Assembly: GCA_963768655.1 (NCBI GenBank)
Contig: CAVYIM010000003.1
Location: forward strand, 768,001 to 832,000
DNA: 64,000 nucleotides
Origin: an uncultured Chloroflexia bacterium
Lineage (GTDB): Bacteria; Chloroflexota; Limnocylindria; Limnocylindrales; CSP1-4
Direction: 5' to 3'
The notes beneath the pieces were generated by a model, which saw nothing but the letters and a program-made list of their open reading frames with translations, did not search any database and had not been told where the DNA came from. Shown here piece by piece: positions 31,476 to 55,446 of the stretch. The translations under genes were made by a program, and so were the position numbers. Each line of letters begins with the position of its first letter. Positions within the stretch are counted from its first letter, which is position 1.

Positions 31476-32273
31476 TTACCTCTTGGCCTTGCCCAGCTCC
31501 GTGAGGACCGCGCGGAACGGCTCCGCGTAGCCGGTGAAGCCGGCGAAGAGACGCCAGACCTCCTCCGGCGGGCGGCCCGACCTCATCAACCCCGTGCTCC
31601 AGCTCTTCGCGTTCGCGCCGGTCCGTGGACCGAAGCAGCCGTAGCAGCCCCGGCCGTAGGTCGGGCAGAGCGCGTTGCAGCCGGACGCAGTGACGGGGCC
31701 CATGCAGGCCTCGCCGGAGGCCACGACCATGCAGACGATGCCCTTGCGCTTGCATTCACGGCAGACCGCCTCTTCGCGGATCTGCGGCCGGCGGCCTACG
31801 AGAACGGCCGTCAGCAGCTCCAGGAGCTGCCCGCCGTCGATGGGGCAGCCTCGCAGCTCGGCGTCCACCTTGACGTGGTCCGAGACGGCCGTCGCGGTTG
31901 CGAGCGACTCGACCCATTCGGGGTGCTCGTAGATCGCGGCGCGATAGGCGTCGTGGTCGGCCCAGTTGCGCATCGCCTGGATGCCACCGGCCGTGGCGCA
32001 CGCCCCGATGGTGACCAGAACACGCGCCTGCTTGCGCAGGGCCTTGATCTGGTCCAGGTGTTCCGGCGCGCTGATCGAGCCCTCGACGAAGACGACGTCG
32101 TACGGGCCGGGGGAGTGGTGAGAGGTGGCCTCGGGGAACTCGACGATGTCGAACCGGCTGACGATCTCGAGGAGCTTGTCTTCGAGGTCCAGGATGGTGA
32201 GCTGGCAGCCGTCGCACGAGGCGAACTTGGCGACGGCGACTCGCGGGCGGACGGCCTTGCCGGTCGTAGCCAT
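31476..32273 (-). CDS. Group 3b [NiFe]-hydrogenase small subunit-like protein (sulfhydrogenase delta)
   Basis: FASCDGC, EGS, GACATAGG, GCP, VCRECK, CMGPVT..GC.ALCP, GCYGCFGP. Confidence 0.88.
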   Translation of the reverse strand: MATTGKAVRPRVAVAKFASCDGCQLTILDLEDKLLEIVSRFDIVEFPEATSHHSPGPYDVVFVEGSISAPEHLDQIKALRKQARVLVTIGACATAGGIQAMRNWADHDAYRAAIYEHPEWVESLATATAVSDHVKVDAELRGCPIDGGQLLELLTAVLVGRRPQIREEAVCRECKRKGIVCMVVASGEACMGPVTASGCNALCPTYGRGCYGCFGPRTGANAKSWSTGLMRSGRPPEEVWRLFAGFTGYAEPFRAVLTELGKAKR

Positions 32274-34282
32274 CAGATGCCCTCCCGGACGTAGAGATCG
32301 CCGAGCTCACTCAGACGGAACACCGGGCCGTCCTTGCAGACGAAATACGGCCCGGTCTGGCAGTGGCCGCACAGCCCGATGCCGCACTCCATGTGGCGCT
32401 CCATCGAGACGTTGATCCGTTCGGGCGGAACGCCCTTGGAGATGAGCGACTGGACCGAGGCCTGCATCATCCGCTCCGGTCCCACGACGAAGGCGGTGAT
32501 CTTGGAGCAGTCGCACGACATCATGTCGAAGAGCGTGGTCACGACGCCGACACGGCCCTTCCACTCGGGGCCGGCCCTGTCCACCGTCACGGCGACGTCG
32601 ATGGCGTTGCCGGCCGACCAGGCGACGAGGTCGTCACGGAAGAGCTGGTCCTCCGGCGTGCGGGAGCCGTAGTACAGCGAAACCGACTCGAACCGGTCGC
32701 GGTTGGCCACGAGCGCCTCCACCAGACCGTGGAGCGGCGACAGACCGACGCCTCCGGCGACCACGACGGCATGCCTGCCGTACGCGTCTTCGATCGGCCA
32801 GAAAGTGCCGAGCGGCCCGCGGACACCGACTTTGGCGCCCGGATGCAGATTCACCAGGGCTGTGGAAGTTGGCCCGACGGCGCGGATCGTGAGGTCGATG
32901 CCGTTCGCACGGAAGCGCGAGATCGAGATGGGGACGGCCGGGAAGGCCGGCAGGGCGACCATCACGAACTGGCCCGGGCGGCCGGCGAGGAAGGCTCGGT
33001 CGAGGTCGGTCAGCGACAGCGTCGTCGTGTCGTCAGTCTCCTCCTTGACCGAGGCGAGGCGCGCGAGCGAGAAGCTGCCGGGGCTGGCGGCCACGGGCTC
33101 GACCGCGACTGGCCGCTCGATCGGCTGGATGACCGGCGCGATCGCCTGGAGCTCCTCGCGGACGTCTATTCGGACCGGGCACCAGGTGATGCAGCGACCG
33201 CAGCCGACGCAGCCGAAGCTGCCGAACTGGTCCATCCACGACGAGAACTTGTGAGTCAGCCACTGGCGGTAGCGGTCGCGCGGGCGGGCCCGGAAGTCGC
33301 CGCCGGCGACCTTGGCGAAGTTGACGTCGAAGCAGGAGTCCCACTGCCGTTCCGTGACGCTGGTCCGACCCTCCATGTCCGACCGCTCCGTCACCGAGGT
33401 GCAGAAGCACGTCGGGCATGCCATCGTGCAGTTGCCGCATTCGACGCAGCGCTCCGCCACGATGCCCCAGCGTGGATTGTCCAGCTGGTGCTTGAGGCGC
33501 TGGTCGATGCCGGCCATCGGCAGCGGCTCGCCGATCTGGGTGCGGACTGCCTCGACGACGTCGACGGCGGCGCCGGTCTCGGCGTGCGTGGGCCGGCGTG
33601 TGGGCAGATGAGCCACGATTGCGGCCCCGGCCGGAGAGCCGGCCTGCATGACGAAGCCGTCGTCGATTTCTGTCAGGAGGATGTCGTAGCCGCTTCGAAC
33701 TTCCGGTCCGGTTCCCATCGACGAGCAGAAGCAGGTGCTCGAAGACGTAGTGCACTGCACGGCCACGATCAGGGCGGCCTTGCGTCGGGCTCGGAAGTCC
33801 TCGTCCGTGAACGGGCTGCCGAGGAAGACCCGATCCTGCATCCCAAGAGCCGCGATCTCGCAGGCGCGAACGCCCAGGAATGCCAGCTGCGGCGCGACGG
33901 TCTTGGGCTGGTCGAAGCCGAAGCCGCCGGACAGGTGAGCCGTCGCGATCGGAAGGTTGGGTGGGAAGGTGAAGCGCTTCCAGGGCGTCGGTCCGACGGT
34001 GTAGCCGAAGACGCGCTCATCCGAGCGCTCGGCCAGCCGGTAGCGACCGGCGACCTGTTCGTCTCTGATGCCCACAGGCAGATCCGCGGCCGACTGGATC
34101 TCGTCGTTGACGATGGCTCCGTCGCGGACGGTTGGACCGATGACGGTGCGCCCCGCCTTGCGCAGGGCCTGGATCAGGGCATCCAGGTCGGAGCGCGCCA
34201 GGAACCACTGCCTGGCCACGGCCGCCGGGCTAGGGACAGGGTTGGTGATCACGGATCCAGTAACCTCCCGGGCGCGATTCAC
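32273..34282 (-). CDS. Fused sulfhydrogenase beta (2x4Fe-4S) and gamma (FAD/NAD-binding, 2Fe-2S) subunits
   Basis: CVECGNCTMACPTCFC and CVGCGRCITWCP, continuing in frame into PGQF, RGPLG, AGGVG, MECGIGLCGHC...CKDGPV. Confidence 0.88.
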   Translation of the reverse strand: MNRAREVTGSVITNPVPSPAAVARQWFLARSDLDALIQALRKAGRTVIGPTVRDGAIVNDEIQSAADLPVGIRDEQVAGRYRLAERSDERVFGYTVGPTPWKRFTFPPNLPIATAHLSGGFGFDQPKTVAPQLAFLGVRACEIAALGMQDRVFLGSPFTDEDFRARRKAALIVAVQCTTSSSTCFCSSMGTGPEVRSGYDILLTEIDDGFVMQAGSPAGAAIVAHLPTRRPTHAETGAAVDVVEAVRTQIGEPLPMAGIDQRLKHQLDNPRWGIVAERCVECGNCTMACPTCFCTSVTERSDMEGRTSVTERQWDSCFDVNFAKVAGGDFRARPRDRYRQWLTHKFSSWMDQFGSFGCVGCGRCITWCPVRIDVREELQAIAPVIQPIERPVAVEPVAASPGSFSLARLASVKEETDDTTTLSLTDLDRAFLAGRPGQFVMVALPAFPAVPISISRFRANGIDLTIRAVGPTSTALVNLHPGAKVGVRGPLGTFWPIEDAYGRHAVVVAGGVGLSPLHGLVEALVANRDRFESVSLYYGSRTPEDQLFRDDLVAWSAGNAIDVAVTVDRAGPEWKGRVGVVTTLFDMMSCDCSKITAFVVGPERMMQASVQSLISKGVPPERINVSMERHMECGIGLCGHCQTGPYFVCKDGPVFRLSELGDLYVREGI

Positions 34283-34895: not shown

Positions 34896-36871
34896 CTACA
34901 CCTGCACCGGCCGCAGACCCTCCGCAACCACCTCGGCGATATCCATGACGCGGATGGTCTCCACGCCCGTGTCCTTGAGCCCGTCCTCGAACATAGTCAA
35001 GCAGTAGGGGCAGGCCACGCAAACCGTCGATGGGCCGGCCGCCAGCGCGCCAACCGCCTCGCCGACTCGGGCGACGTTGATCCGCTCCCCTTCCAGCTCC
35101 TCCATCCACATCCGGCCACCTCCGGCCCCGCAGCAGAAAGCGTTCTCGCGGTTGCGCGGCGCTTCGACCGGCGGCTCGCCGGTCACGGCGGCAATGGCAC
35201 GCCGCGGCTCGTCGTAGATGCCGTTGTGCCGGCCGAGATAGCAGGAGTCGTGGTAGAGGACCTGCCCGAGCGCCTTCGCCTGGCGATTCGGCTTGATCTT
35301 GCCGTCCGCCAGCAATCGCCCGAGCAGCTCGGAGTGGTGCAGCACTTCCAGCTCGAGCCCGTACTGGCGGTAGTCGTTCTTGAGAGTGTTGAGGCAGTGC
35401 GGGCACTGGGTGATGATCTTCGTCACCTTTCGGTTGACGAAGATCTCGACGTTCTCTCGCGCCATCTGATCGAACAGGTACTCGTTGCCGAGCCGCCTGG
35501 CGCTGTCGCCGCAGCACTTCTCGTCTTTGCCGAGTACGCCCCAGCTGACCCCGGCCATGTCCAGCACCGTGGCAATGGCGACCGTGACCGCCTTCTGCCG
35601 TGCGTCGAACGTCCCGGCGCAGCCGATGTAGAACAGGTACTCCGTCTCGCCCGCGACGAAGTCCCTGACCTCCATTGTGGTGTGCCACTTGGTTCGCTCC
35701 GTCGGAGCGATGCCCCATGGGTTGGATCGCTGCTCCATGTTCTCGAAGAGGTTCATCAGCTCTTCGGGGAACTCGCTCTTCATCTCCACGAGGTTCCGGC
35801 GCATCTTGATGATCTTGGGCATGTGCTCGATCAGCACCGGGCAGGATTCCATGCAGGCCCCACACGTGGTGCAGGACCAGATGGCCTCCGGGGTGTTGGT
35901 GGCTTCGCCCTCGGTGCCGATGAGCGGACGTGCGGCTCCCGACCTGCCTTGAGATCGGCCGAGTTGGCCATCAGATTCATCTTGATCGAATGGATGACCT
36001 GGCGCGGATTGAGGGCCTTGTTGGTGGCAGTCGCCGGGCAGGCTTCCTGACACCGGCCGCACTCGGTGCACGAGAACGAGTCGAGCAGGTCCTTCCAGGT
36101 GAAGTCGCTGACTTCGCCTGCGCCATACGTGTTGCCAGTGGTGAATTCCTCGCGCGGCTGGGTGTTGGGCTTGTCGAACCTGGCGAAGAAGGAGTTGGGG
36201 ATGGCCGTGAGGATGTGCATGTGCTTGGAGATCGGCAGGAAGACCAGGAACGAGCACAGCACGACGGCATGCACCCACCAGAAGAACGTGCCGTAGGCGC
36301 CGTCGCCGGGAAGCCGAGCCACCAGCGAAGACACGGGCATCCAGCCCGACAGGGGCTCCTGGCCGCGGGCGATCTCGGCGCCGTGAATGCCGAAATAGGC
36401 GACCATCAACAGGCCGATGAAGATGAGGATCAGGAAGCCCTCGAGACTTCGCCGCTTGACGTACTTGGTGTCCAGCTTGAACAGGAGGCGGCGCACGATC
36501 GCCAGAAGAACGGCGACGAGAGCCAGAAGCGATACGACGTCGAACAGCAGGAACAGCGGCCCGCGGAGATAGTCGGGGAGCAGGCGAAGGCTGATGCCCG
36601 GAAACAGACCGCTGACGATGAAGTCGGTATTGGCGATGAGCAGGACCAGGAACGACCAGAAGATGACGAAGTGGTTGAGCCCGAAGGGCCGCGCCAGCAC
36701 GCGCTTCTGTCCGAACGCGTATAGGAGCATGTCCCAGGCGCGCCGGGGCAGGTTGTCGAACCGGTTCTCGGGCTTGCCGAAACGAATGAGAGACAGCCGC
36801 CTCCAGGCGAGAACGCCGAACGCGACCGCCGCCAGGCCCGCCAGGACGGCGAACGCGAGTTGCTGGCTCAT
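34896..36871 (-). CDS. Membrane-bound Fe-S oxidoreductase (FadF/HdrD-like, putative ETF:quinone oxidoreductase); one frameshift near 35933
   Basis: N-terminal TM His-containing domain, CTECGRCQEACP, CTTCGACMESCP, CCG domains; one missing base joins the two ORFs as EP(A)RPLIG. Confidence 0.85.
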
Positions 36872-38205
36872 TCGGGCGCGCTCGCGGCCTTCATGTCGCG
36901 CAGACGGCTGGTTATGGCCGGGATGATCGTGAGGACGTCACCGACGATGCCGTAGGTCGCGACCTGGAAGATCGGGGCGTCCTTGTCGCGGTTGATGGCG
37001 ATGATCACGTCGGAGTCCTGCATCCCGACGAGATGCTGGATCGCGCCGGAGATGCCGCAGGCGATGTAGATCTTCGGGCGGACCGTCTTGCCCGTCTGCC
37101 CGACCTGGCGATCCTGGGGCATCCAGCCGGCGTCCACGACGGAACGGGAAGCTCCGACCACGCCGCCGAGCTCGTCGGCGAGCTCCTGGAGCATGGCGAA
37201 GTTCTCCCTGCCCATCATCCCCCTGCCGCCCGAGACGATCAGGTCTGCGCCGGCGATGTCGACGTCATGCCGTTGCCTGTCGCTGACGGTCTCCAGGACC
37301 TTGACGAGGATGTCGTCTTCCTCGATCTCGCAGGTCTCCCGGACTGTCGTGCCGCTTCTGCCCGGCTGCCTCTCCGGCATCTGCATGACATGCGGCCTTA
37401 CCGTCGCCATCTGGGGCCGGAATCGGTCGCACATGATCGTCGCCATGATGTTGCCGCCAAAGGCGGGGCGGGTCTGCATCAGGTTGCGCTTGTCGTCGAT
37501 GGCGAGGCCGGTGCAGTCTGCGGTGAGGCCGGTGCCGACGGCGGTGGCCACTGCTCCGGCCAGGTCGCGGCCCAGACCGGTTGCCCCCATCAGGATGATC
37601 TCGGGCTTGTACTTCGCGATCAGCTGGCAGACTGCCTGCAAGTAGCTCTCGGTGCGGTAGTAGCGGAAGGCCGGCGCGTCAACCAGGTAGGCGTTGTCGG
37701 CGCCGTACTCGAACGCTTCGGTGCAGAGGTGCTCGACGCCGGCACCGATCACCAGCGCCGAAAGCGGCACGGCCAGCGTATCGGCAAGCTCGCGGCCTTT
37801 GCCGACCAGCTCCCACGATACCTTGGCCGGGTCTCCCTCGGTCTGCTCGACCAGGACCCAGACTCCCTTGTAAGCGGCGAGTTTGCGGGCCAGAGCTCGA
37901 GCCTCCGGGTCGTCGGAGCCATCTGGAGCACCGCCGCGTTCGGCCAGGATCTGGGCGAGAACGGCCTGTTCCTCAGGCGTGAAGAACATGTCGATGGCCT
38001 GGGCGGGGCAGACCTTCACGCATTTCACGCAGCCGATGCACTTGGACTCGTCGATGACCGGCGAGTCGGTGGCGGCATTCATCTCGATGCAATCGTCGAC
38101 CGGGCAGGCAGCCTGGCACCTGGCGCCACAGGCGATACAGCGCCCCTCGATCAGCTGGGCCTTGCCGCGCGGCCGCTTGACTATCGGCTTTCTCGCTTCG
38201 GTCAT
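36868..38205 (-). CDS. etfA: Electron transfer flavoprotein alpha subunit with N-terminal 2x[4Fe-4S] ferredoxin domain
   Basis: [53 protein letters not shown]. Confidence 0.93.
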
Positions 38206-38248
38206 GGGTGACTTCCGGAGTCCTCTCTTGTCGAAACGGATGCTCTGA

Positions 38249-39061
38249 CTACAAGGCGACGAGGTCTTTGCTCAACAGCTTGTCGACCAGGAGATTGGCT
38301 GCGCCGATCGGATCGTTGGCGCCGTCGCCGATCATTTCGCCCTTGTCGCGCTGCGGCGAGAAGATGCGGCTGACCCACGTGGGTGAGCCCTTGAGGCCGA
38401 TCTCGCGGACGTTCAGCTTCAGCACGCGGTTGCCCCAAACCTCGACGTCATGCTGTTGCGCGAGGAGGCGCATCGGCACGGTCGGGTAGCGCGGACGGTT
38501 GATCTCCCGCACGACGGTGATCATCACCGGCAGCGGGGCTTCGACGATCTCGTGGCGCCCTTCGAGCTTGCGACGAACGCGGATCCGACCCCGGGCCAGG
38601 TCGATGCTGATGATCCGATCCACGAGTGTCAGCTGGGGGTAGCCGAGCCTGGTCGCTATCCCGGGACCTACCTGGGCCGTGTCGCCGTCGATCGTCTGCC
38701 TGCCGCAGAAGACGATGCCGATCTCCTCTTCGTCATTCAGGCGGCGGATTGCAGCGGCAAGGACGTTGCTGGTGGCGAGCGTGTCTGCGCCGCCGAACAC
38801 TCGATCTGACAGAAGCACTGCTCGGTCGACACCCAGGGCCAGCGCTCGTCGCAGCGTCGCCTCGGCGTTGAGGGGCCCCATCGAGATGGCCGTGACCCGG
38901 CAGTGTGAGCTGTCCTTCAGGCGCAGCGCCGTCTCGAGGGCTTGCGTGTCGTAAGGATTGACTATGAACGGGATGCCTTCACGGACGAGGGTGTTGGTGA
39001 CCGGGTCGATCTGGACCTGAGTCGTATCCGGAACCTGTTTGATACATGCGACTAGCTGCAC
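38249..39061 (-). CDS. etfB: Electron transfer flavoprotein beta subunit
   Basis: CIKQVPD, NPYD, GADTLAT, GRQTIDGDTAQVGP, GLKGSPT. Confidence 0.94.
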   Translation of the reverse strand: MQLVACIKQVPDTTQVQIDPVTNTLVREGIPFIVNPYDTQALETALRLKDSSHCRVTAISMGPLNAEATLRRALALGVDRAVLLSDRVFGGADTLATSNVLAAAIRRLNDEEEIGIVFCGRQTIDGDTAQVGPGIATRLGYPQLTLVDRIISIDLARGRIRVRRKLEGRHEIVEAPLPVMITVVREINRPRYPTVPMRLLAQQHDVEVWGNRVLKLNVREIGLKGSPTWVSRIFSPQRDKGEMIGDGANDPIGAANLLVDKLLSKDLVAL

Positions 39062-39428: not shown

Positions 39429-39514
39429 GGGAGTGCCATCAGGTTGCGGTGGGAGTGCCATCGGGTTGCGGCAGGAGTGCCATCAGGTCGCGGCGGGCGG
39501 GCCATTCGGCCCCG
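39429..39514. promoter_or_regulatory. Array of three 22-bp direct repeats plus a palindromic DosR-like box
   Basis: RGGAGTGCCATCRGGTYGCGGY at 39429, 39451, 39473, then GGGCCATTCGGCCC at 39499. Confidence 0.7.
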
Positions 39515-39593
39515 CCGCATTACCTGCGAGGTCGCAGGGTTCGGCCCGACGCCGCTAGACTGCACCGAGTCTCCGCACCGCAGTGGAGTCGCG

Positions 39594-40632
39594 ATGGAAT
39601 CCAGAAGGCTTGTCGTCGCTGGGCTGACGGTCGCGGCGGTGGCGCTCATCGTCGCGGGCGTGGTTGCAGTCGCTATCGACTCCGGATCGCCGGCCGGCCC
39701 GTCCACGGCGTCGGCGAGTCTGCCCGGGACACAGACCGGCTCGTACTCCTTCGGCACGCCGTCCCCCAGCGCGCCTCTGCCGACACCGTCCGGGTCTCCC
39801 GGCCAAACGCCCAGCCAGGTCTCTCCGTCTCCGTCGCTCGCGCCCTCGCCCTCTGCCGGCACGACCGGCTTCGTGGTGCGAGGCGCCTCGATCGTCTACT
39901 ACGCGGCCGATGGCACAGTCGTGCCGGTGGAGCCAGTCCCAGGTCTGGGCATGGCTCTCGTCGACGGTCAGGCGCGGTACTACGCGCTAGCGACCAACCC
40001 TTACGGTCTTCGGGCGGGTGCCTATGCGGGAGAGTTCATGCCGAACGTGACCATGCAGCAGGCTGACGGCTCGAGCGCGCAGACTGGTGGGATCGTGCTG
40101 GTCGGGACTGTCGCCAATCGGCTCATCGCCACCCAGCTGGCGTCCTATTCGAATTCAGGCCGACCGCTGGATCGTGGCCTTGCCGGTGGACATCAGAGGG
40201 GCCACGGGGTCGGTCGGAGTCGTGTTCGATCAGTTCGGTTTGCACGGCTGGTCGGATACGCCGCGTGTCACGGTCCGCTTCTCCGGCCAGCTGCCCGTTG
40301 TCAACGTCATCCCGGCCAACACCGGCTACCACGTGCTCGTGGAGCAGCTCGGGGTCACGACCTGGCAGGCGATCGACCCGACGCGGCTCAGTCTCTCGAC
40401 CACCGCCCTGGACCCGAGTCACCTGATGAACGAGCTGCTGATCTACGGGACCGGGACTCCCAGCACACGCACGGACGTCACCGTAAACAAACGCGTGCCG
40501 GTGGGCCGGGCGATGCTGTCCGCGACCGGCGAGGTGAGCGTCTCGTTGGTGGTCCCCGGCAGCCGAGCTGACCTCGGGCCGGATCGGATCCTCACGGTGG
40601 CTGACGTCCCTGTCTTCGTCGCGTCTTCCTAG
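39594..40632 (+). CDS. Hypothetical secreted or membrane-anchored protein; frameshift near 40155
   Basis: N-terminal TM, Ser/Pro linker; coding-style sequence continues in the +1 frame (QADRWIVALPVD). Confidence 0.65.
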
Positions 40633-41510: not shown

Positions 41511-42809
41511 CTAGCGGACCTCGACGACGAGGAAGTCCATCGAGCCCGCGGGGATCTCGACGCGGATCTTCTCGCCGGCCCTGCGGCCAATCAACGCCCG
41601 CCCGATCGGTGACGTGAAGCTGATCTTGCCGGCATTGGCGTCGGCCTCGGCCGAGCCGACGATGGTGAACGTCTCCTCGCCGTGGCGGTCGGTCTCGACG
41701 ACGACTGTCGATCCGAGCTCGACCACGCTGCCGCCCTCGCTGGTGGAATGGATGATCACTGCATGCTTGATCATCTGCTCGAGCTGCTGGACGCGGCCTT
41801 CGAGGAAGGACTGCTCCTTGCGGGCGGCTTCGTAGTCGGCGTTCTCGCTCAGGTCGCCCAGCTCACGGGCGGCCTTGATGCGGGCGATGACCTCCGGGCG
41901 ACGGCGTGTCGTGAGCTCCTCCAGCTCGGTGCGCATGTTGGCCAGGCCTTCGGCCGTAAGGTGGGTCGGCGCGATCGCCATTCCGGGCGGGGGCGCGGCC
42001 AGCCGTCGGGCGCGGGTGGCAGGCTCGGCCCTGGGGATGGGCCGCCGCCGGGGCGTGTTGTCTCGGGACGAGACGGGTCTGGCCGGTGCCGGCTTGCGCG
42101 CGGCGGAGGCACGAGCGGCAGCGCGTGGCATAGAGGTACGTGCGCCGCGCGCGGAGCCGCGTGCCGGCGGAACTTCTTCCGGACCATCGGGCAGAACGGT
42201 CACGTGGGTCGGCCCGGCGGGGAGGCTGCCGGCGCTCTCGTCGTGCAGGGGCGCGGTCAGGCCGTGGCTCCGGTGTTCCCCCGACGGTGTGACCAGCACG
42301 CCGTACGGCAGCGCACCGGCCGTCTTGACGAAGCGGTCTATCAGGGCGTCCTCCCACAGTTCGGCGTCCCGAGTGGGGGACCACCAGATCCGGGTCCGGT
42401 TGAGATCGTGGAGCGTCTTGAGCCAGTAGCCGGCGGACTGCGGTCGCCGCTCACCGAGCAGCGTCTTGTACATGCCCGACAGGCGTGCGCCGACGGACTT
42501 CTGGCTCGACCCGACGTAGAGGATCACCTGGTTGGGCAGCCAGAACGAGGCCAGGCGCGTCTGCAGCTCAGCGACCGTCGGGCGCTTGCCGTCGAGGCGC
42601 AGGTCGGGCGCGCGATCGAGCCACTGGCGGACAGCCGTCGGGTCGATGGAGACCTTGGGCTGCGGCGCCGGCAGCTCCACGATGAAGACGCCGGGCCCGC
42701 TCGGGACGACGGGTCGTCCCCACAGGATCGGGCCTTCTACCGGGAGCTCGAGGGCCCGCAGCAGGTCATGACCGTTCAGGATCGTTGCCGGGGAGGGTGA
42801 AGTCGTCAC
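41511..42809 (-). CDS. greA: Transcription elongation factor GreA with N-terminal GIY-YIG-like domain
   Basis: C-terminal LTAEG...GDLSENADY...ISFTSPIGRAL; N-terminal GPGVFIV...ILYVGSS...GARL. Confidence 0.88.
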   Translation of the reverse strand: MTTSPSPATILNGHDLLRALELPVEGPILWGRPVVPSGPGVFIVELPAPQPKVSIDPTAVRQWLDRAPDLRLDGKRPTVAELQTRLASFWLPNQVILYVGSSQKSVGARLSGMYKTLLGERRPQSAGYWLKTLHDLNRTRIWWSPTRDAELWEDALIDRFVKTAGALPYGVLVTPSGEHRSHGLTAPLHDESAGSLPAGPTHVTVLPDGPEEVPPARGSARGARTSMPRAAARASAARKPAPARPVSSRDNTPRRRPIPRAEPATRARRLAAPPPGMAIAPTHLTAEGLANMRTELEELTTRRRPEVIARIKAARELGDLSENADYEAARKEQSFLEGRVQQLEQMIKHAVIIHSTSEGGSVVELGSTVVVETDRHGEETFTIVGSAEADANAGKISFTSPIGRALIGRRAGEKIRVEIPAGSMDFLVVEVR

Positions 42810-42989
42810 CTGTGAACCGTGCTATGCGGCGCCGTTCTTGTCAAACGCGACCCCTCGCGGGCCCGCCGTGAGGCGTGGCGGGGCGTCCCGGGCATCCTTT
42901 CGCGCGGCAAACGATTGCCGCTGTAGCATGGGCCCGGCCCATGTTCGTGGCCCGGAGGGGACCCTTGCCTGGTTCGGAGGAGAACTCAC

Positions 42990-43285
42990 GTGCGACGGAT
43001 AGGTTTGGTCCTCGCGGCGGCCGCGGTCTTGATCGCCGCTCCGACTTCAAGCTCAACTGGAACGTATCGCCATACAAGGGGCCGGGGACCTACGCCGATC
43101 CCTCGACCTACCAGGGCTCCGTAGAGCTCGACGCCAGCAACGGAGACGAATACGACCCGGTGACGGCAAGCGTGTTGTCTCTCACGGTCAAGGCCGACGG
43201 TTCGGGCTCGGCGACGTTCAAGAACCTGGAGGATCAGTACACCAACGCGGCCGTGAGCGGCAGCGAGACGTGGACCTGTGGCTGA
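42990..43285 (+). pseudogene. Internally deleted secreted or lipoprotein gene remnant
   Basis: GGAGGAG RBS and GTG encode signal peptide MRRIGLVLAAAAVLIAA; beta-rich C-terminus (...GSETWTCG) lies in another frame. Confidence 0.55.
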
Positions 43286-54416: not shown

Positions 54417-55446
54417 TCATTCGGGTCGATGCGTCAGAGCCGGCAGATCGTCGGCCAGGCACGCCGCCCCCGACGGGTAGTCGTACTCGAGCTCGCCGAC
54501 GATGGCGCGCAGCCGGCTCTCTGCCTCCCCTCGACTCGTCGCTCCATCGAGCGCGGCCCAGTAAGCTCGCCGTATTCGTTCGTGGAGGAGTGGCTTCTTG
54601 GGCAGCTTGGCCAGGACGTTGCGAAGGCGATGGACAGTGCAGCGCTGCCGGTCGGCGTCGGGCCAGAGCTGCCCGATTGCGGCGATGAGCCCAGGCGCTC
54701 CATCGGACACGACCAGGAGCGGACTCGCCAGACCGCGGGCAGCGAGGCCACGGCCCAGATCGAGCCAGTCCTCGGTTCGTTCGCGCTGACCCAGACAAAC
54801 ATCGAGCAGCACACGTTCGCCATCGAGCGTGTAGCCCCAGGCCACCAGAACGCCCTCCTTGGGACCGTCCGGGCGCACGGGCAGGTAGATCGCGTCGCAC
54901 ATCAGGCTCAACAGGCGGATGCCGGCGAGGTTCTTCGCTCGAAACGCCCGATAGCGGTCGCGCAACTCACGGCAGACGTCGGACACGGCGGTCTTGCTGA
55001 TCTGGCCCAGCCCTGCCTCGGCCGCGAGGGACTCGATGTCGCGCGTGGACAGGCCCCGGACGTAGGCGCCGATGACCAGGGCCTCGAGCGGTCGGGTCCG
55101 GATCGAAGTGCGACAGTCGGGGATGACCGAACTCACGAAGCGGGTCAGGCTGTCGCGGACCTGGGGCACTGCGATCGTGAGCTGTCCCTCGGCGGTCACG
55201 ATCTCGCGTGGTCGGTGGCCGTTGCGCGAGCCGCGGGCCTGCGGCGTGCGCTCGAACCGGGCGCGGCGCAGGAACCGCTCGACCTCCTCCTCGATGGCCC
55301 GCTGGAACACGAGCTGGGCGCCCAGGCGGCCGAGCTTGCTCAGCTGATCGAGGCCGTCAACCACCGTCCCCGCTCTCGAGGCCGTCGAGCAACAACTGCT
55401 CGATCTCGGCTTCGATCTGGACACTCGGGGCTATCCTTGCTTGCAC
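54417..55446 (-). pseudogene. IS256 transposase, frameshifted near 55359 and 3'-truncated
   Basis: RNGHRPR, GLSTRD, CDAIY, VSDGAPGL, QRCTVHRLRN; ends before the TNxxER catalytic Glu; AGGAGG RBS and GTG at 55446. Confidence 0.85.

Follow-up and report, generated by a model that had tools for sequence, protein, structure and literature searches.

To our knowledge, Gre factors are nearly always bare proteins of 150-160 aa, and their targeting to stalled polymerases is usually ascribed to transient binding alone. One group of Chloroflexota from soil and peat carries GreA in permanent fusion with a nuclease-shaped domain, and the question that this locus raises is what such a domain does on a Gre factor. 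The original prediction, made from one such gene, proposed a GIY-YIG-like nuclease or nucleic-acid-binding module tethered to stalled RNA polymerase, with a potential role in transcription-coupled repair or R-loop processing. We analysed this gene in a 64,000-nt stretch of DNA (hereafter the window), together with its database relatives. The reading that best describes the results is a working Gre factor with a pseudo-nuclease tether, binding either nucleic acid or a protein partner, and not a repair nuclease.

Layout, conservation and expression of the fusion gene

The predicted 432-aa ORF is present on the minus strand with a GTG start. Its parts, and the putative promoter elements upstream, are as follows:

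41511..42809, minus strand: fusion gene, GIY-YIG-fold domain plus linker plus GreA, 432 aa (ORF with GTG start; Pfam and NCBIfam)
42240..42779, minus strand: GIY-YIG-fold domain, aa 11-190, probably decayed catalytically (F42, Y98, G100, R109, Q124, E153, V171; AlphaFold2, VIA-align, residue counts)
42531..42671, minus strand: helical insertion, aa 47-93, between the GIY and YIG strands (secondary structure; alignment to the stand-alone protein P0227)
41976..42239, minus strand: Ala/Pro/Arg-rich disordered linker, aa 191-278 (pLDDT, composition)
41514..41975, minus strand: GreA domain, aa 279-432 (Pfam, NCBIfam)
41832..41858, minus strand: acidic coiled-coil tip GDLSENADY, aa 318-326 (D319, E322; D..EN..Y pattern)
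42839..42844, minus strand: putative -35 hexamer TTGACA (conserved motif, presumed function)
42816..42821, minus strand: putative -10 hexamer CACGGT (17 nt after the -35, 6 nt before the GTG; weak consensus match)

The GVF (40-42) and YVG (98-100) motifs, R109 within GARL and E153 within ELWEDAL lie where they were originally described, V171 occupies the position at which a terminal Asn had been reported missing, and the Pro/Arg/Ala linker, predicted to be disordered, and an intact GreA with its acidic tip are likewise present. In a full-length model (pTM 0.47), both ends are folded and the linker between them is disordered, with pLDDT <50 at residues 194-202 and 206-278. The linker varies in length among relatives and carries 16 K+R vs 5 D+E (aa 195-278); the N-terminal domain (N-domain) is slightly basic (21 K+R vs 18 D+E), with a GC3 of 0.88 vs 0.90 for the GreA part. 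The latter matches PF03449 (aa 284-352; 93.2 bits for a cutoff of 24.5) and PF01272 (aa 361-431; 79.5 bits for a cutoff of 26.9), exceeds the cutoffs of TIGR01462 (165.4 vs 139 bits) and of PRK00226.1-4, and stays below cutoff with the GreB models. The tip pattern D..EN..Y is kept in 118/119 close and 22/23 distant GreA fusions, and D319 and E322 presumably correspond to the tip residues D41 and E44 of E. coli GreA.

The fusion is genuine and conserved. The frame is open over 420-438 aa in 15/15 related Limnocylindrales-type loci despite linkers of variable length, and GreA is present in 119 of the 120 listed homologues (out of 169 matches) of aa 1-195 among proteins of 237-756 aa; note that these 120 include the window's own protein and that this size range could not reveal stand-alone forms. 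The 15 loci, confirmed among 341 pattern matches in GTDB by a single-protein scan reaching close relatives only (72-91%), come from MAGs titled Limnocylindrales, Chloroflexi, Chloroflexota, Chloroflexia and, in one case, Anaerolineaceae. The sole listed homologue without GreA, P0096, is seemingly frameshifted, and a GreA piece, P0294, lies on a contig of equal length. When aa 1-195 were searched among proteins of 101-342 aa, 25 matches were obtained, and the 12 examined are mostly fragments, frameshifts or distant members. Over 120/120 sequence pairs, the median dN/dS is practically the same in the N-domain (0.173) and in GreA (0.170), and reaches 0.50 in the linker, which aligns poorly; at the level of codon substitutions, this shows purifying selection on the N-domain as strong as on GreA. 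In the GreA tree, two NCBI proteins labelled Limnocylindrales (P0355 and P0369) group among the distant fusions, an indication that the fusion spans the order Limnocylindrales.

These observations bear on the trivial explanation, that a lost stop joined two genes or that the N-domain is a passenger and only a short GreA is made from M277. We consider it very improbable, even with probable indel errors in the contig near the fusion gene, an ATG no more than 14 codons away from the GreA core in 10/16 sequences, and short database calls such as P0288, P0291 and P0304. The lost-stop artefact is rejected on account of the open frames, the fused homologues and the equal dN/dS, and short-only translation is rejected since Met occupies column 277 in 12/120 sequences and no internal ATG lies near the GreA core in 6/16. 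As for the short calls, a search with the GreA part among proteins of 84-270 aa gave 1569 matches, of which 120 are listed; the closest of these (76-91%) mostly start with linker remnants or sit on short contigs, and resemble incomplete calls of the fusion; a few are ambiguous, e.g. P0304 on a 40-kb contig.

Another 51 of these 120 listed matches (a subset of P0317-P0407) form a separate clade of plain GreA, mostly of 153-157 aa and with true short N-termini in most members (SH-aLRT 99 in a quick tree of 130 rows). Their median identity to the close fused GreA is 53%, a value that does not compare with that of the distant fusions, as the plain sequences were selected for their resemblance to the query, whereas each distant fusion represents a 50% cluster. 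This clade may be the housekeeping greA of the same organisms, which we hold to be more probable than not; no second greA is found by tblastn with the GreA part in the 64-kb window, and K03624 is present in four Limnocylindria families according to a supplement of PMC13212565 that gives presence without copy numbers. The existence of the plain clade, together with the statement in a passage of PMC8989532 that Gfh factors inhibit RNA polymerase, argues for the fusion being a second, specialised Gre paralogue whose role, like that of Gfh1 in Deinococcus-Thermus, would be to modulate plain GreA or compete with it and not simply to rescue backtracked complexes. We regard this as unlikely, given that the fused GreA keeps a cleavage-type tip and passes the TIGR01462 and PRK00226.1-4 cutoffs; it can hold together with the pseudo-nuclease tether.

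Upstream of the first GTG, the arrangement TTGACA, 17 nt, CACGGT, 6 nt, GTG occurs in 13/16 sequences. A relaxed version (17-18 nt spacer, one base free, 6-8 nt gap) is found in 16/16, once per locus: it is single in the 64-kb window and in each of the 15/15 related loci, always at the fusion gene, and in one of them (L009) the GTG that it indicates lies a little upstream of the start in the alignment. Note that the pattern was derived from these same sequences; what counts as evidence is that it persists where the intergenic DNA has otherwise diverged. The -10 box agrees with the consensus at 2/6 positions, and a generic promoter scan reported no promoter at the fusion gene. Because the spacing from the -10 box to the GTG would place the first transcribed base at the G of this GTG, the pattern suggests a leaderless mRNA. 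As had been remarked for the internal Met, no SD-like 4-mer precedes the GreA core within 14 codons, M277 included, and an internal ATG and an SD-like 4-mer occur together near the core in only 1/16 sequences. The full-length protein is the likely product, and some lineages may also make a minor short GreA isoform.

The neighbours of the fusion gene, in the window and in its relatives, are a phosphofructokinase gene on the same strand and a gene for a LiaF-like membrane protein in convergent orientation. Several other features were observed in the window. The gene at 39444-40632 (+) is split by an extra base near 40151-40159 when compared to four related loci, in which its counterpart is one open frame of about 400 codons; the split is probably a sequencing error. 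At 34896-39061 (-), ETF beta, a ferredoxin-fused ETF alpha and an Fe-S/CCG oxidoreductase that is spread across two frames form a block that is missing at this position in four related loci (L001, L003, L004 and L005). A 669-aa ORF at 32273-34282 (-), beside an Oxidored_q6 gene, combines 4Fe-4S dicluster and FAD/NAD-binding Fe-S parts, which we take to resemble fused sulfhydrogenase beta and gamma subunits. The small divergent ORF region at 42875-43285 (+), in which a signal-peptide-like start lies at 42990 in a different frame, is possibly a frameshifted secreted protein; it has no Pfam match and no counterpart at this place in related loci. A Mutator-family transposase is encoded at 54420-55424 (-).

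Fold and origin of the N-terminal domain

The N-domain has no Pfam or NCBIfam match, so that its assignment to GIY-YIG rests on a fold search and on its relatives; sequence searches of the PDB gave nothing for it, and only Gre matches from the fused rows. The AlphaFold2 model of the N-domain, built from a 114-row alignment, reaches a pLDDT of 94.7 and a pTM of 0.90. When compared by VIA-align with 48,161 PDB representatives, its ranks 1-7 are all GIY-YIG folds (Z 4.0-7.6): T4 EndoII (2wsh; Z 7.6, rmsd 2.9, 107 aligned), the UvrC N-terminal domain (1ycz; Z 6.3, rmsd 2.3, 81 aligned), I-TevI (1ln0; Z 5.7, rmsd 2.4, 83 aligned), a plant glutaredoxin N-domain (Z 5.5), which we take to be GIY-YIG-like, Eco29kI (3mx4; Z 5.0, rmsd 4.5, 109 aligned), PD-T4-3 (Z 4.1), which presumably has a GIY-YIG domain, and Hpy188I (3oqg; Z 4.0, rmsd 3.5, 90 aligned). 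The first unrelated chain has a Z of 3.6; all these scores are <8, a range that the tool calls common, the values thus being modest and the ranking uniform. Foldseek also ranks Eco29kI first, at a non-significant E of 0.27, and gives no match at E <= 0.001 in PDB or viral models. The hairpin, Arg helix, linker strand and Glu helix follow one another as in GIY-YIG folds. Among the 114 aligned relatives, PF01541 is weakly detected in 11 (best E 0.01) and PF20815 in 13 (best E 0.003), and for the homologue P0009 the Atlas clusters carry 17% PF01541 at a score of 0.92. On the modelled structure, the N-domain has a GIY-YIG fold, in agreement with the original prediction.

By sequence comparison, this domain derives from a large unnamed GIY-YIG family. 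A profile search of 1.84 billion representatives retrieved 864 at E <= 0.001 (best 150 listed), and the stand-alone protein P0227 aligns to the N-domain with 39% identity over 170 columns (probability 99.7). Like P0203, P0216 and P0265, P0227 is about 200 aa long with a helical insertion in the hairpin, the insertion at aa 47-93 being common to the fusion and to this stand-alone family. The family shares a conserved PH.GG.W motif and lies below Pfam cutoffs where scanned; PADLOC (library from 2023) matched 0/10 proteins at E <= 0.1. Some intact members bear a further C-terminal domain, either HTH-like (P0251, P0278, P0282 and P0273) or of ~90 aa (P0219, P0225, P0258, P0263 and P0285), the latter resembling, we presume, the B3/EcoRII-N DNA-binding barrel; weak HARE-HTH matches are found in two intact relatives (E 0.11).

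The history of the domain was examined with a quick IQ-TREE of 84 rows (midpoint root, SH-aLRT, without bootstrap), comprising 8/119 close, 23/23 distant, 24/45 stand-alone and 14/20 other fusions, and 15 unassigned rows. All 31 GreA fusions fall in one clade of 46 rows (SH-aLRT 96), the remainder of which are the 15 unassigned rows, three of them with a non-GreA tail. P0138, P0156 and P0178, whose N-domains lie within the GreA-fusion clade, end in a winged-helix-like domain instead of GreA, which suggests domain swapping. Rows with intact sites branch early in the tree, and later lineages lose different residues. Because of this single clade, its early intact rows and the different later losses, the tree fits a single capture from a GIY-YIG nuclease family with intact sites, after which catalysis was eroded repeatedly.

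Catalytic residues and the role of the tethered domain

The six active-site positions of GIY-YIG nucleases are Tyr, Tyr, Arg, His, Glu and Asn (a passage of PMC3161791), with the GIY Tyr as proposed general base and, in an earlier proposal, the YIG Tyr (a passage of PMC3045582). We aligned 285 proteins with an N-domain match, of which 78 were dropped as incomplete at key columns or of unclear architecture, and assigned residues to the known active sites from motifs and from the order of secondary-structure elements; the fold search supplied ranges only. All five of GIY Tyr, YIG Tyr, Arg, Glu and Asn are kept in 42/45 stand-alone relatives (tail <= 20 aa, identity <40%, length <= 260) and in 18/20 relatives with other long tails, vs 0/119 close GreA fusions; note that the latter form one clade, and their counts are not independent events. 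Stand-alone relatives have Tyr42, Tyr98 and His124 in 45/45 each and Asn in 43/45, whereas the close fusions have Phe42 in 116/119 and keep Asn171 and the family His124 in 1/119 each. The YIG Tyr98 is Tyr in 75/119, including the window protein, and Phe in 44/119; G100, R109 and E153 are each invariant (119/119). The window protein has F42 at the GIY Tyr position and M113 four residues after the Arg, where stand-alone relatives have Tyr (25/45) or Phe (19/45); the equivalent of the His/Tyr four after the Arg may be Y114, which is kept, or His124, which is lost. Among the distant fusions, 4/23 keep all five residues (P0167, P0160, P0152 and P0197), two of them also His124, and the metal-site Glu (E153) is lost in 6/23.

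Substitution of the GIY Tyr in Eco29kI (Y49A) leaves 0% activity with DNA binding retained (Kd 49 vs 16 nM; PMC1952068, Table 1), and N154L keeps about 10% activity in the same source. The title of PDB entry 3nic names an inactive Y49F variant. Judging from these substitutions, the N-domain has probably lost the ability to cut, and the caution, voiced in the original prediction, that it may be inactive was well placed. That the protein is an active Gre factor carrying a non-cutting domain appears likely to us.

Could the domain instead be an active nuclease with a rearranged site, brought by GreA to stalled polymerases, where it would nick DNA or trim RNA? The invariance of R109, E153 and G100 in close fusions, the Tyr98 kept in the window protein and the four distant fusions with all five residues would be consistent with it, as would the effect of Gre factors on lesion-stalled polymerase (PMC8989532). 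A loss of cutting is also less certain in view of GIY-YIG sites that tolerate variation and exist as variants (PMC2630997), and of a rival mechanism in which the base is the YIG Tyr, which is kept here (PMC3045582). The active-nuclease reading is nonetheless decidedly unlikely: the GIY Tyr is replaced by Phe, the Asn and His are gone and even Phe98 is frequent in the close fusions, and the residues lost differ from one fusion lineage to another, a sign that selection for catalysis has been relaxed. A scan of 7 + 44 window ORFs turned up no repair gene. With the cutting residue substituted and no pointer to R-loops either, the proposed role in transcription-coupled repair or R-loop processing is not supported. 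We leave a slim chance to a GreA-carried active nuclease at stalled complexes in the early-branching fusions (P0167, P0160, P0152 and P0197), where intact sites may still cut, or even here; if true, one polypeptide would rescue backtracked polymerase and nick nearby DNA or RNA, coupling backtracking to repair or R-loop removal.

Returning to the pseudo-nuclease tether, the mechanism that we tentatively propose as a whole is the following. One full-length protein would be made from the leaderless mRNA, and its GreA half would enter the secondary channel of RNA polymerase as a normal Gre factor, donating D319 and E322 to stimulate cleavage of backtracked transcripts, as the conserved residues and established Gre biochemistry suggest (Gre factors stimulate transcript cleavage in the secondary channel; a passage of PMC8989532). 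The N-domain, presumably no longer cutting yet kept under purifying selection, would form with the basic linker a nucleic-acid anchor through its old substrate cleft, R109 and the metal-site E153 binding a backbone phosphate. Such an anchor would hold GreA near transcribing or stalled polymerases and lengthen its residence there.

The anchor role draws support from the Eco29kI Y49A variant, inactive yet DNA-binding, from the invariant R109 and E153, from the conservation of K131 (111/119), R180 (97/119) and H182 (117/119) in close fusions, and from the further C-terminal domains that intact relatives often carry, two with weak HARE-HTH matches. The only slightly basic character of the N-domain weighs against an anchor, and such a DNA-binding face would not be universal, because the distant fusions in part lose E153 and do not conserve K131, R/K180 and H182. 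The relaxation of these basic family residues is one argument for a different use of the presumably dead domain, namely as a protein-interaction or regulatory module that docks on polymerase, on GreA itself or on a protein of repair or replication, and thereby recruits or switches Gre activity. Four residues specific to the fusions and rare in the 65 intact proteins point the same way: E45 (119/119 close, 22/23 distant, 9% of intact), R140 (119/119, 23/23, 11%), W142 (118/119, 23/23, 12%) and D154 (116/119, 20/23, 17%). These residues may equally be shared by descent or structural, and no partner gene is conserved near the fusion gene in the window and related loci; we therefore view a docking module as possible, if rather improbable. 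A two-chain prediction of the N-domain with the GreA domain scored 0.00 twice, which speaks neither for nor against binding.

Relation to known systems

The literature search returned no paper naming both GreA and GIY-YIG (subscription papers being mostly outside the search) and no description of this Gre fusion in this lineage (bioRxiv supplements being outside it). We thus found no earlier description of the pairing of GreA with a GIY-YIG-fold domain, long Gre fusions as such being already known. A lineage-wide Gre factor with a conserved tethered domain offers a test of what tethering or partner recruitment does to Gre action. The graded series from intact nuclease to intact fusion to eroded fusion makes the passage from enzyme to pseudo-enzyme visible, and the fusion exposes a large GIY-YIG family (864 clusters) barely recognised by Pfam.

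Like GreA and GreB (PF03449 + PF01272, TIGR01462), the fusion has a coiled coil with an acidic tip and a C-terminal domain, but it has about 280 extra N-terminal residues, a folded domain and a disordered linker. The long Gre fusions PRK06330 (718 positions) and PRK14720 (906 positions), which we take to be chlamydial and spirochaetal, also have GreA at the C-terminus; they match the GreA part only (aa 285-416 and 286-431, respectively), and their N-terminal domain differs. Gfh1 is a specialised paralogue without an added domain that inhibits polymerase (a passage of PMC8989532).

On the nuclease side, the N-domain shares fold and order of elements with T4 EndoII, UvrC, I-TevI, Eco29kI and Hpy188I, and differs from them by the 47-aa hairpin insertion, Phe in place of the GIY Tyr, the loss of the Asn and the attached GreA. 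The UvrB-binding, RNase H and HhH parts of UvrC are absent from the fusion, and a UvrC/Cho excinuclease was rejected, as whole-protein Pfam and NCBIfam scans give only Gre-type families. The stand-alone ~200-aa family has the same insertion but keeps Tyr, Tyr, Arg, His, Glu and Asn and lacks GreA; its members are putative nucleases. In layout, the fusion can be set beside eukaryotic TFIIS, a secondary-channel factor to which an N-terminal domain I is added, the likeness being that of an extra module on a factor that works in the same channel.
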